Below the pieces are notes generated by a model. That model worked only from the letters and a program-made list of their open reading frames with translations. It ran no database searches and had not been told where the DNA came from. Positions 35,724 to 37,582 of a stretch of 64,000 bases of DNA are shown in pieces. A program made the translations under genes and the position numbers. The stretch's first letter is position 1. The number at the start of each line of letters is the position of its first letter. This stretch comes from Clostridioides phage LIBA2945, in the sequence record MF547663.1; one strand, 5' to 3'.

Positions 35724-35861
35724 TATATGTAATTGGTCTTTATTTATTATTCACTCATTTACTTACGTTTTATAATTTATAGTCAGATTTTTTTTGAAAA
35801 TATATATTTATCTAATAAAAAATATTGTTTATAAAAAACGTATTTATGATATAATAGTAAT

Positions 35862-36003
35862 ATAAATGATATAAATTTATATCATAAAGACATAAAAAAA
35901 GAGACTACAACTATTTGTGCTAGGGTGTCTCTTCATAAATAAGCGAAGTGTTAATTAGAGGAAGAATCACCTGAATTGCCGTTCGGGTGATTCTTAATTT
36001 TTT
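35862..36003 (+). ncRNA. candidate type I antitoxin sRNA 1
   Basis: Extended -10 TGATATAAT at 35847–35855. Internal hairpin aagagac...gtctctt. Terminator aagaatcacc...ggtgattctt + T-run (35962–36003) lies inside the 3' end of the convergent toxin ORF. Confidence 0.45.
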
Positions 36004-36130
36004 GCAACGTTTTCTTAAACTCATCTATTTCTTTAAAGAGTCTATTTAAATTCTGAACCAACTTAATCAAACTAATAATTATAGTTGTAAGAAATGTTAT
36101 TATCGTTAACAAACAAATTAGATATTTCAT
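35951..36130 (-). CDS. type I toxin-like small membrane peptide 1 (59 aa)
   Basis: MKYLICLLTIITFLTTIIISLIKLVQNLNRLFKEIDEFKKTLQKIKNHPNGNSGDSSSN: single TM helix plus polar tail. SD ggggagg is complementary to an upstream ccttccc (sequestration hairpin). Minus-strand promoter TGGTATAAT about 110 nt upstream. Confidence 0.5.
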   Translation of the reverse strand: MKYLICLLTIITFLTTIIISLIKLVQNLNRLFKEIDEFKKTLQKIKNHPNGNSGDSSSN

Positions 36131-36391
36131 AATATCATATCACCTCCCCTCTTGATTTGACATGGGAAGGCTTATGTATATGAAGATTCACCCTAATAGT
36201 TTTTTTATGTAGTCTCTAAAAATATTATACCATAAATTACCAATATGTTAAATTTAATATTATATTGTCTACAATTGTAAAAGAATATTGTGTTCTAAGA
36301 AGTTATTCTATTAATAGTATAGCTTTTTTATTTTTCAATGAAGATAATGACAACATTGACTATTTTGATAATATTGGAGTATAATAGTAAT

Positions 36392-36547
36392 ATAAATGAT
36401 ATAAATTTATATCATAGGGACATAAAAAAGAGACTACAAACTATTTGCTGTAGGGTGTAGTTCTTAAAGTTAACAATAAAAAGAATAGATTTATGTATTA
36501 CTTTCAGAATCACTAGACCCGCCAGTCTGGTGATTCTTTAGTTTTCT
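36392..36547 (+). ncRNA. candidate type I antitoxin sRNA 2
   Basis: About 75 bp near-identical to sRNA 1 (ataatagtaatataaatgatataaatttatatcata..gacataaaaaa.gagactaca). Terminator agaatcactagac...gtctggtgattct + T-run. Confidence 0.45.
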
Positions 36548-36652
36548 AATAGATGCTTTCAAGTTTAAGATTGCATCTATTAGCTTTGTCAAATGATTGA
36601 TTATTCTTGTAATCATAATTATCATTATTAAAAACAAAACTAAGTACTCCAT
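36491..36652 (-). CDS. type I toxin-like small membrane peptide 2 (53 aa)
   Basis: MEYLVLFLIMIIMITRIINHLTKLIDAILNLKASIRKLKNHQTGGSSDSESNT. Paralog of peptide 1 (shared C-terminal KNH..G.S.DS.SN motif). SD aaggggg with an upstream cccc sequestering stretch. Confidence 0.5.
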   Translation of the reverse strand: MEYLVLFLIMIIMITRIINHLTKLIDAILNLKASIRKLKNHQTGGSSDSESNT

Positions 36653-36910
36653 AGTCTCACCCCCTTTCTTACTGGGGATTTTAACTAAAGAGCCATCACC
36701 CTAATAGTCTAAACTGTAGTCTCTAAAAATATTATACCATAATTTTCCAATATGTTAAATTTAATATTATATTGACGACAGGAGTAGAATAAAGATATAA
36801 TACAGATAACAGAAAATTTAAAAATTTTACATAAGAATTACTACTTATCTATGCCACCTTAAAAAGTGGCTATTTTTCTATTCTGGTATATATTTAAGGA
36901 GGTGTTACAA

Positions 36911-37066
36911 ATGATAAATAATATAGAAGATTGTAAGCTTCTTATTGAGGCAGAAATAAGAATGAAAGATATAGATGAAAAAGAACTAATATCTCAAAGG
37001 GAGATTCTGAAAGACCTAAATATTAATGAAAAAGACCTTGAAGATATTGAAGTGAATTTTGAATAA
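36911..37066 (+). CDS. small acidic hypothetical protein (51 aa)
   Basis: SD taaggaggtg. MINNIEDCKLLIEAEIRMKDIDEKELISQREILKDLNINEKDLEDIEVNFE. Confidence 0.35.
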   Translation: MINNIEDCKLLIEAEIRMKDIDEKELISQREILKDLNINEKDLEDIEVNFE

Positions 37067-37201
37067 TGAAATGATTTATAATATACCTATTTTAAATATG
37101 TATTAGTTGATATCAGTAATCGTCTTTATCTAGTGATTTTTTATTTATTAACTGTAAACGAATCTGTTTTACAAAAAACGTATCTGTGGTATAATAAAAG
37201 T

Positions 37202-37306
37202 AAGGAATTTAATCTACTTAATACAAAGAGTGATTGTTTCCTTAAAGTTAATTAAAAATTAATTTATCTTTTGAAACCACTCTTATTGGCGTCTGAGTGG
37301 TTTTTT
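37202..37306 (+). ncRNA. candidate type I antitoxin sRNA 3
   Basis: Extended -10 TGTGGTATAAT (37185–37195). Terminator aaccactcttattggcgtctgagtggtttttt (37275–37306) inside the toxin 3' end. Confidence 0.45.
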
Positions 37307-37380
37307 GCTTTATCATATATGTAACAAGCTATTAAACTTGTTGCAATATTTAGGCAAATATTAAACACTACTGTTTCCAT
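37264..37380 (-). CDS. type I toxin-like small membrane peptide 3 (38 aa)
   Basis: METVVFNICLNIATSLIACYIYDKAKNHSDANKSGFKR. SD aaggaggtga. Confidence 0.45.
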   Translation of the reverse strand: METVVFNICLNIATSLIACYIYDKAKNHSDANKSGFKR

Positions 37381-37582
37381 AAATTCACCTCCTTATAAAA
37401 AAATAAAGCGAGGCTCACCTCCTTCCTTTGAAGAAGTAGGCTAAATACAGAAACAACCACTCTTAGCACTTTCGATTTAAAATTCCTTACTATACTAGAT
37501 TATACCATAATTTTACAATTAATAAAATATTTTAGCTCATCTTAATTGATGGGCTTTTCTAATACAAAGAAGGTGATAAAAT

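Follow-up and report, generated by a model that had tools for sequence, protein, structure and literature searches.

Are the three small minus-strand genes that lie between the tape-measure gene and the tail genes of Clostridioides phage LIBA2945 the toxin halves of toxin-antitoxin (TA) systems of type I, and to which family would they belong? We analysed a stretch of 64,000 nucleotides of this phage (MF547663.1), referred to as the window. An original prediction made from its sequence had described three tandem units (here units 1 to 3), each with a minus-strand open reading frame (ORF) for a small peptide and a convergent plus-strand transcript, as well as a fourth unit at 57.3 kb. The ORFs, their coordinates and their position between tape-measure and tail genes were confirmed, the last by the flanking annotation. 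The explanation that we regard as the probable one is that these are three type I TA cassettes, one belonging or related to a known family and two forming an undescribed sister lineage, with prophage maintenance as their likely role. The cluster is real and probably consists of type I TA cassettes; it is not a categorically new system.

The assignment to a known family concerns units 3 and 4. When the peptides were searched with toxin models, NCBIfam NF047374 (CD_typeI_toxin, type I toxin-antitoxin system toxin) matched unit 3 with an E value of 5e-7 (30 bits) and unit 4 with an E value of 7e-15 (55.1 bits), the curated cut-off of this model being 60 bits. Both peptides were also assigned to phrog_738. 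The comparators phiCD38-2 gp33, phiMMP04 gp31 and the phiC2 peptide scored 79-94 bits to NF047374 and are full members, and a tblastn search with unit 4 returned 52 phage records, nearly all from C. difficile phages and with phiCD38-2 gp33 included. The family has been characterised by Maikova 2018 (PMC5961336) and Peltier 2020 (PMC7699646): the toxic membrane peptides are neutralised by antisense RNAs in cis and in trans, and plasmids and prophages are stabilised (PMC5961336, PMC7699646). gp33 of phiCD38-2, which is carried with parA, was itself named as a TA by Peltier et al. 2020 (PMC7699646). Judged by these matches, the C. difficile family with experimental characterisation (CD0956.2/RCd10, CD2907.1/RCd9 and CD2517.1/RCd8) has relatives in units 3 and 4. 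The original prediction had found no described family for the peptides, which no longer holds for units 3 and 4 and still holds for units 1 and 2. Membership in the fst/ldr, txpA or bsrG families was not supported, with no significant match to any Pfam family for any of the four peptides.

Next to the peptides, the transcripts predicted for the four units were compared with those of the known family. Taking the start of each RNA ~7 nt after its -10 box, we predicted antisense RNAs of 142, 154, 105 and 121 nt for units 1 to 4, respectively, toxin leaders of 87, 72, 112 and 84 nt, and toxin mRNAs of ~270-330 nt. These sizes agree with the RCd8/CD2517.1 and RCd9/CD2907.1 pairs, for which mapping by rapid amplification of cDNA ends gave antisense RNAs of 134-140 nt, mRNAs of 298-306 nt and leaders of 83-88 nt (PMC5961336); RCd8 (140 nt) and the CD2517.1 mRNA (306 nt) overlap by 131 nt (PMC5961336). 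The likeness to clostridial prophage type I TA systems that had been proposed was supported. In each unit the predicted terminator of either RNA sits inside the opposing transcript, and the 3′ ends would therefore be fully complementary over ~105-150 nt.

The signals that delimit these transcripts were largely as proposed. A promoter scan gave five hits with 11/12 matches in the region; among these are the promoters for the toxins of units 1 and 2 and those for the antisense RNAs of units 2 and 3. The best-scoring hits are the promoters that had been proposed, and the predicted leaders of 72-112 nt compare with the ~100 nt given for the 5′ untranslated region in the original prediction. An extended -10 box on the plus-strand promoters was present in units 1, 3 and 4 but absent from unit 2, which has a TTGACT -35 box and lacks the TG. 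Promoter DNA is shared across units 1, 2 and 3. In the terminator scan of 35600-37700, six sites were found, on the plus strand only, versus 0.2 expected from shuffles, and two of the six fall within the final codons of the unit 1 and unit 2 genes. A loop of 12 nt kept the unit 3 terminator (37274-37306) from being picked up by the scan, but it is obvious in the fold. The proposed placement of a plus-strand terminator in the end of the peptide gene was correct for all three units. We also checked by folding whether the Shine-Dalgarno (SD) sequence pairs with an upstream anti-SD stretch, as had been claimed. The probability of an unpaired SD was 0.08 for unit 3 and 0.01 for unit 4, a strong predicted occlusion by the anti-SD, whereas for units 1 and 2 it was 0.17 compared to ~0.42 in shuffled leaders, a moderate one.

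The RNA scaffold of units 1 and 2 is conserved beyond the window. Every relative of these units that was read has kept an extended -10 toxin promoter, a leader of 66-100 nt and a strong SD, followed by a convergent antisense promoter 60-90 nt past the stop codon, and has the terminator arms and the U-tract in the codons for K[IL][KR]NH...S[GD]D. In an alignment of 11 sequences of the antisense terminator, 96% of the cells were paired and compensatory changes were found in 9/14 pairs. None of 500 shuffles gave a helix as good as this (0/500), and no slid register came close. Moreover, the terminator helix was more stable on the antisense strand in 12/12 unit 1/2-type modules, because one to three G.U pairs become C.A mismatches on the toxin strand. 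This strand asymmetry argues that the terminator on the antisense strand is the selected structure. As far as such sequence comparisons go, they demonstrate that the predicted antisense terminators are under selection. We infer dual coding for the motif K[IL][KR]NH..x..S[GD]D, the codons of which would also supply the antisense terminator with its U-tract and its two arms. That both peptide types resemble each other in K-N-H is best explained in this way, since AAR-AAY-CAC is the 3′ arm of the terminator read backwards.

A second conserved part of the scaffold is the 5′ domain of the antisense RNA. The phiC2 antisense 5′ domain GAAGAACUACAAUCUAUUUAGCGGUAGAGUGAAGUUC was recovered with 79-90% identity over 29-53 nt from six modules of the unit 1/2 type, in each of them at an equivalent position, namely unit 2 and the related loci L007, L031, L006, L047 and L012 (E values of 1e-6 to 2e-3, blastn against a small database), and the consensus block reads AAAGARACUACAAUCUAUUU..GUAGRGUG. 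The hairpin drawn for this domain is based on single-sequence folds and blastn; RNAalifold gave no consensus structure for it, as MAFFT misaligned the 3′ arms. A permissive Rfam search of 35600-37700 returned matches at chance level only, and no Rfam family fits the RNAs. By their layout, antisense 5′ domain and promoter DNA, the cassettes of units 1 and 2 are homologous to the known family at the level of RNA and DNA. We therefore read these units as a sister lineage that would have kept the RNA chassis of the known C. difficile systems while its peptide body diverged or was replaced.

The peptides of the four units are 38-59 aa long and hydrophobic at the N-terminus, with a maximum Kyte-Doolittle value over 15 residues of 1.9-2.9 at residues 4-5. 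All are thus shorter than 60 aa with an N-terminal hydrophobic or transmembrane (TM) segment. For unit 1, AlphaFold2 predicted one helix (residues 2-46) and a disordered tail, with a mean pLDDT (predicted local distance difference test) of 84. This agrees with the single TM helix of the original prediction. A lysine-rich, positively charged C-terminus was found in units 3 and 4 but not in units 1 and 2: the net charge of the tail is +2 in unit 3, where the tail is short, +4 in unit 4 and +2 to +7 in known toxins (+4 to +7 in known family members), compared to -1 in unit 1, -2 in unit 2 and -1 to -4 in their relatives, counted after KNH. The two pairs of paralogues that had been proposed were confirmed, with 44% aa identity between units 1 and 2 and 53% between units 3 and 4. 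Among unit 1 orthologues the ratio of non-synonymous to synonymous substitution rates (dN/dS) was 0.12-0.37, and unit 1 differs from its orthologue L028 by 13 synonymous and 8 non-synonymous changes. By this measure the unit 1 ORF is under purifying selection, and the sequence comparisons as a whole show that the predicted peptides are coding.

The peptides of units 1 and 2 matched phrog_5620 (function not known) alone, and no match was obtained in Pfam, NCBIfam or PADLOC. Homology to the known toxin family at the protein level was considered and rejected on an hhalign comparison that is given below. A profile search of 1.84 billion representatives yielded six proteins and a follow-up search 14, all annotated as "hypothetical". 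The relatives have 25-41% aa identity and the common C-terminal pattern K[IL][KR]N[HR]P[ND]G..D.., and those at L007-L009, L014 and L031-L044 are located at C. difficile prophage ends and chromosomal sites. A few others are on metagenomic contigs, beside integrase, Fic or helix-turn-helix genes or in ordinary chromosomal contexts. Among the species-representative genomes scanned, the pattern KI[KR]NHPNG was found in C. difficile CD160 only. Within 2.5-4 kb of the examined relatives, no arrays or repeats of the CRISPR type were found.

Within this group, a 58-aa relative, MKTLMFILVIAYY...LHKLRNRPDGNQDDFNE, and variants of 50-51 aa (L031-L044, L007-L009 and L014) follow holin/amidase genes at C. 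difficile prophage ends. The 58-aa relative (L031) adjoins two BlaI-like (Penicillinase_R) genes, and gene callers report the 58-aa form only as "partial" at contig ends. The L031-type relative (L031 peptide MKTLMFILVIAYY...NQDDFNE) may correspond to CD1663.2/CD630_n00610 of strain 630. The 58-aa proteins linked to cyclic di-GMP (c-di-GMP) riboswitches in a 2026 bioRxiv report are unrelated, as they have a C-terminal hydrophobic helix and form a four-helix bundle.

The toxin mRNA of each of the four units and of every relative begins with 10-40 nt that are a repeat of the 5′ domain of the antisense RNA from the same module. The element common to both RNAs is AGAGACUACA...UAGGGUG in units 1 and 2 and AGUAAGGAAUUU...AGAGUGRUUGUUUC in unit 3. 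As the 3′ end of the toxin mRNA is the complement of the antisense 5′ domain, the minimum free energy folds pair the 5′ and 3′ ends of the mRNA in all four units; in unit 1 the 3′ arm of the predicted toxin-mRNA terminator is complementary to the mRNA 5′ end. Across 13 modules, the duplex with the own partner had a mean of -34.8 kcal/mol, compared to -21.3 kcal/mol with non-partners. The own partner was the best one in 9/13 modules; where it was not, a close or sister lineage mostly gave the better duplex. With the U-run that follows it, this element of units 1 and 2 also resembles the terminator of the toxin mRNA itself. No mention of 5′-3′ pairing of these mRNAs was found in Peltier 2020. 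A long-range translational switch as in bsrG/SR4 was considered and was not supported by folding alone: blocking the antisense target in silico left the accessibility of the SD unchanged in units 1, 2 and 4, and unit 3 alone shifted, from 0.36 at full length to 0.12 when blocked. Should the 5′-3′ pairing be of importance, an effect on the stability of the mRNA or on the access of the antisense RNA is more likely than a switch of translation.

Under the TA reading, the minus strand of each unit would give a structured mRNA of ~270-330 nt for a small membrane peptide, with its SD partly or fully occluded, and the plus strand a convergent antisense RNA of ~105-155 nt. By homology with the RCd/CD toxins, the antisense RNA would be short-lived and would pair with the 3′ region of a stable toxin mRNA, and this pairing would block toxin production and trigger decay of the RNase III type. 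Upon loss of the prophage, the antisense RNA would disappear first and the membrane peptide would arrest the cell, again by homology, which would amount to post-segregational stabilisation. In addition, both ends of the mRNA may pair with each other, in competition with the antisense RNA.

Several observations weigh against this reading. Units 3 (30 bits) and 4 (55 bits) stay below the 60-bit NF047374 cut-off, and the tail of unit 3 is very short. Units 1 and 2 and eight of their relatives give no NF047374 match, and their tail is net acidic and not lysine-rich. When the unit 1/2 family was aligned with the known toxins by hhalign, only a 10-column KNH stretch was aligned, with a probability of 8%, and this one stretch is constrained by the RNA terminator. 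The SD occlusion in units 1 and 2 is moderate, and several unit 1/2-type relatives are at 0.3-0.5, which is weak. The similarity between mRNA 5′ ends and antisense RNAs could also reflect inverted-repeat cassette ends or shared promoter-proximal signals and not RNA-RNA pairing. Were CD1663.2 a relative, this would counsel caution about the toxicity of units 1 and 2. It is possible, although we have our doubts, that the phrog_5620 lineage (K[IL][KR]NHP[ND]G..D..) is a distinct class of antisense-controlled membrane peptides on a TA RNA chassis, with an acidic tail that would point to another target or mode, and that the whole superfamily has a closed 5′-3′ mRNA with which the antisense RNA competes, a hok-like fold-back in a Gram-positive system of 3′ overlap. 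Units 1 and 2 might also be antisense-regulated small membrane proteins that are no toxins and recycle the TA RNA scaffold, leaving unit 3 (and 4) alone as a true TA; such proteins would consist of a TM helix, an amphipathic helix in the cytoplasm and an acidic tail, and superinfection exclusion, modulation of a host membrane complex and control of lysis or sporulation are possible jobs for them. We consider this unlikely. The tail charge of the unit 1/2 family (-1 to -4, versus +2 to +7 in known toxins) and the lack of protein homology to NF047374 speak for it, and a divergent 59-aa antisense-controlled peptide of strain 630 has been reported without type I TA features; purifying selection shows that the peptide matters but says nothing about toxicity. 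However, the predicted stable-looking and structured mRNA, the predicted occlusion of the SD and the dedicated antisense RNA are all conserved, a layout typical for the silencing of a harmful product. Moreover, the cassettes are carried by extrachromosomal prophages and mobile elements, and their variable copy number and tandem duplication are typical of addiction modules.

That the peptides are holin- or antiholin-like factors of lysis timing, tuned by the antisense RNAs during the lytic cycle, appears very improbable to us. Their small size with a single TM segment, the frequent comparison of type I toxins to holins (PMC5961336) and a weak phrog holin match of unit 4 (E value of 0.15) speak for it, but no significant match to a holin family was obtained for the peptides, and the units are located in the tail module instead of the lysis module, transcribed against the late operon. 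In addition, homologues of units 3 and 4 are experimentally established as prophage-stabilising TA toxins (PMC7699646), and some relatives of the unit 1/2 type are located in the chromosome outside of phages. We give hardly any credence to the idea that the small ORFs are untranslated and that two blocks of late genes are merely separated by a series of terminators or insulators on the plus strand, with some stray promoters. The five hairpins of terminator type on the plus strand of this gap and the missing annotation of units 1 and 2 in the LIBA6276 record would fit it. It is opposed by the dN/dS values of 0.12-0.37 and the 13 synonymous versus 8 non-synonymous changes between unit 1 and L028, the strong and correctly spaced SDs, the preservation of the ORF in distant relatives at 25-41% identity with promoters kept on both strands, and the match of units 3 and 4 to a curated toxin model. 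None of the peptides, nor the neighbouring 51-aa ORF, matched a PADLOC anti-phage defence model. The reading as type I TA cassettes remains the one that we prefer; their parts are listed in Table 1.

Table 1. Predicted parts of the four cassettes, in window coordinates
Feature	Position	Strand	Remarks
Unit 1 antisense promoter	35828-35855	+	TTTATA-16-TGaTATAAT; 10/12 with TG; 73% identical to unit 3 antisense promoter
Unit 1 antisense RNA, predicted, ~142 nt	35862-36003	+	5′ hairpin, conserved AGAGACUACA...GUCUCU hairpin, terminator
Unit 1 antisense intrinsic terminator	35962-36003	+	within peptide codons K-I-K-N-H-P-N-G-N-S-G-D-S
Unit 1 peptide ORF, 59 aa	35951-36130	-	phrog_5620; TM helix, amphipathic helix, acidic/polar tail
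Unit 1 toxin-mRNA terminator, predicted	35894-35934	-	hairpin and U-run; complement of antisense 5′ hairpin
Unit 1 SD GAGGGGAGGUGA	36140-36151	-	upstream anti-SD CCUUCCC at 36164-36170
Unit 1 mRNA first bases AGAGACUACA	36208-36217	-	copy of antisense-RNA element
Unit 1 toxin promoter	36224-36251	-	TTAACA-16-TGgTATAAT
Unit 2 antisense promoter	36356-36385	+	TTGACT-18-TATAAT, without TG extension
Unit 2 antisense RNA, predicted, ~154 nt	36392-36545	+	terminator 36506-36545 in codons K-L-K-N-H-Q-T-G-G-S-S-D-S
Unit 2 toxin-mRNA terminator-like element	36424-36465		hairpin and U-run
Unit 2 peptide ORF, 53 aa	36491-36652	-	phrog_5620; 44% identical to unit 1
Unit 2 SD	36657-36668	-	anti-SD at 36673-36679
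Unit 2 mRNA 5′ end AGAGACUACA	36715-36724	-	
Unit 2 toxin promoter	36731-36758	-	TTAACA-16-TATAAT with TG
Unit 3 antisense promoter	37168-37195	+	TTTACA-16-TGgTATAAT
Unit 3 antisense RNA, predicted, ~105 nt	37202-37306	+	terminator 37274-37306 in codons K-N-H-S-D-A-N-K-S-G-F
Unit 3 peptide ORF, 38 aa	37264-37380	-	phrog_738; short-tailed relative of NF047374 CD_typeI_toxin
Unit 3 SD, leader and toxin promoter	37385-37518	-	SD 37385-37396; 112-nt leader; mRNA 5′ end AGUAAGGAAUUU 37480-37491; toxin -10 37499-37507
Unit 4 peptide ORF, 43 aa	57402-57533	-	within unit 57336-57632; distant paralogue of unit 3
Unit 4 antisense promoter	57336-57344	+	TGgTATAAT
Unit 4 antisense RNA	~57351-57471	+	
Unit 4 SD	57540-57551	-	
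Unit 4 toxin -10	57624-57632	-	

Bases 35700-37600 of the window are 100% identical to LIBA6276 (MF547662.1, 134 kb) and 97.5% identical to phiCD211 and phiCDIF1296T over 87% of the length. According to the annotation of phiCD211 and phiCDIF1296T, the array is bordered by genes for a tail tape-measure protein and a tail endopeptidase (Prophage_tail). In the LIBA6276 record only the unit 3 ORF and the 51-aa ORF are annotated here, both as "hypothetical", and units 1 and 2 are unannotated; in all other records the latter are labelled "hypothetical". Big C. difficile phages are circular extrachromosomal elements (PMC5786514), and the window belongs to a phiCD211-like extrachromosomal prophage of ~130 kb. 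Searching with the unit 1 peptide by tblastn, we found only phiCD211-like phages and plasmid records from C. difficile (127-301 kb). The latter, the only carriers of unit 1-type peptides in the plasmid collection, are seven records of ~130 kb (~127-136) and one of 301 kb, all typed as non-mobilizable.

The gap from the tape-measure gene to the next tail gene (35.83-37.52 kb) is a variable hot spot with three cassettes in the same orientation, the fourth being located at 57.3 kb; no additional copies beyond the four units were found in the window. Of 30 related loci, most carry the first two units together with the 51-aa ORF and a unit 3 that is truncated. In some, unit 3 is missing beside units 1 and 2, two have unit 2 alone, and one has the order unit 2, unit 1 and full-length unit 3, with the 51-aa ORF absent. 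In phiCD211 and phiCDIF1296T, a clean deletion of 164 bp (window 37354-37517) has taken the start codon, SD, leader and promoter of unit 3, while the antisense gene is intact, which leaves an orphan antitoxin beside a toxin remnant. Such a deletion, in which the antitoxin is spared, is the loss pattern expected for a harmful gene. Units 1 and 2 have 88-96% identity in their regulatory DNA but 44% in their peptides, which fits a tandem duplication, recombination between the repeated control regions and divergence of the overlap that determines specificity. Since the antisense 5′ domains of the two units are 90% identical over 67 nt, cross-talk between them is plausible. The position in the tail module, for an array that the original prediction could not match to a described family, has a counterpart in the 44-kb genome of phiCD24-1, where an NF047374-type toxin (L019, LN681534.1 17573-17722) lies between a gene for a 1843-aa tape-measure-like protein and one for a tail component. 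Such cassettes may have inserted repeatedly where tape-measure and tail genes meet, which would make this junction a hot spot.

Further elements were observed in and around the array. A strong plus-strand promoter (TTGACG-18-TATAAT, 36772-36801) is followed ~70 nt on by a terminator-like hairpin (36853-36877), which directly precedes the SD and ATG of a very acidic 51-aa ORF (36911-37066; phrog_13860, function not known). The promoter and hairpin may form a leader or attenuator, or belong to a separate small RNA. The 51-aa ORF is variable or missing in some related phages and is not shown to be part of the TA units. From the tape-measure gene to the next tail gene, five terminator-like hairpins are present on the plus strand (35962-37555). 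Three of them are the terminators of the antisense RNAs, and the two others are located at 36853 and at 37534-37555, the latter directly before the tail gene at 37583. Late transcription must either be antiterminated or start anew, and an RNA that continues from the tape-measure gene would run antisense to all three toxin genes. Unit 4 is found at 57405-57533 in the window and at 57555-57683 in MF547662.1, although the coordinates at 35.7-37.6 kb agree, and the two sequences therefore differ by a net 150 bp between ~37.6 and 57.4 kb. Its neighbours are a 73-aa ORF (57073-57294, plus strand), which has two hydrophobic segments and is preceded by a TGgTATAAT-like promoter of its own, and a 614-aa ORF (57716-59560, minus strand).

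Apart from stabilising prophages, the type I TA systems of C. difficile have found use as tools for counter-selection. A further peptide lineage built on their RNA chassis would, if true, widen this toolbox and help to explain the persistence of 130-kb plasmid-like prophages. Furthermore, a conserved "peptide motif" of type I toxins can be the shadow of an antisense terminator, and a classification of toxins based on motifs can therefore mislead. The co-varying similarity between mRNA 5′ ends and antitoxins offers a testable hypothesis for toxin mRNAs that are stable yet silent. For specialists, the points of interest are the new peptide lineage, the dual-coding motif and the 5′-3′ mimicry.

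How do the units compare to known systems? With txpA/RatA and bsrG/SR4 of B. subtilis they share the location in a prophage, the convergent 3′ overlap, a decay model of the RNase III type and a structured toxin mRNA with an SD that is predicted to be occluded to varying degrees, but there is no sequence or family match and the peptides are unrelated. In hok/sok of E. coli plasmids, the fbi interaction keeps the full-length hok mRNA inert. The predicted pairing of toxin mRNA 5′ and 3′ ends resembles this interaction by analogy only, as there is no homology and the antisense RNA of hok/sok targets the 5′ leader and not the 3′ end. CD1663.2 of strain 630 is a small protein of 59 aa with a cis-antisense RNA; unit 1 also has 59 aa, and the L031 relative 58 aa.

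CD0956.2/RCd10, CD2907.1/RCd9, CD2517.1/RCd8 and CD0977.1/RCd11 have the same host species and prophage carriers as the window units. Both groups have convergent 3′-overlapping RNAs of similar sizes (predicted for the window units), a leader of 80-110 nt and an antisense terminator in the K-N/S-H-S...K-S-G-W codons; the occlusion of the SD is predicted to varying degrees in the window units. Unit 3 differs from this family by its truncated tail and a score of 30 bits, and the unit 1/2 peptides by an extra amphipathic helix of ~20 residues and an acidic/polar tail in place of the lysine-rich one. In contrast to the RCd family, the window units were not seen to adjoin a sigma-B promoter, a cyclic di-GMP riboswitch or a CRISPR array. 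The peptides of phiCD38-2 (gp33), phiC2 and phiMMP04 are only 41-51% identical to unit 4 (aa), and the unit 1/2 peptides bear no similarity to them. Their modules show the same geometry of promoter, leader, ORF and terminator and the same mimicry at the 5′ end as the window units, and phiCD38-2 is a plasmid-like prophage too.

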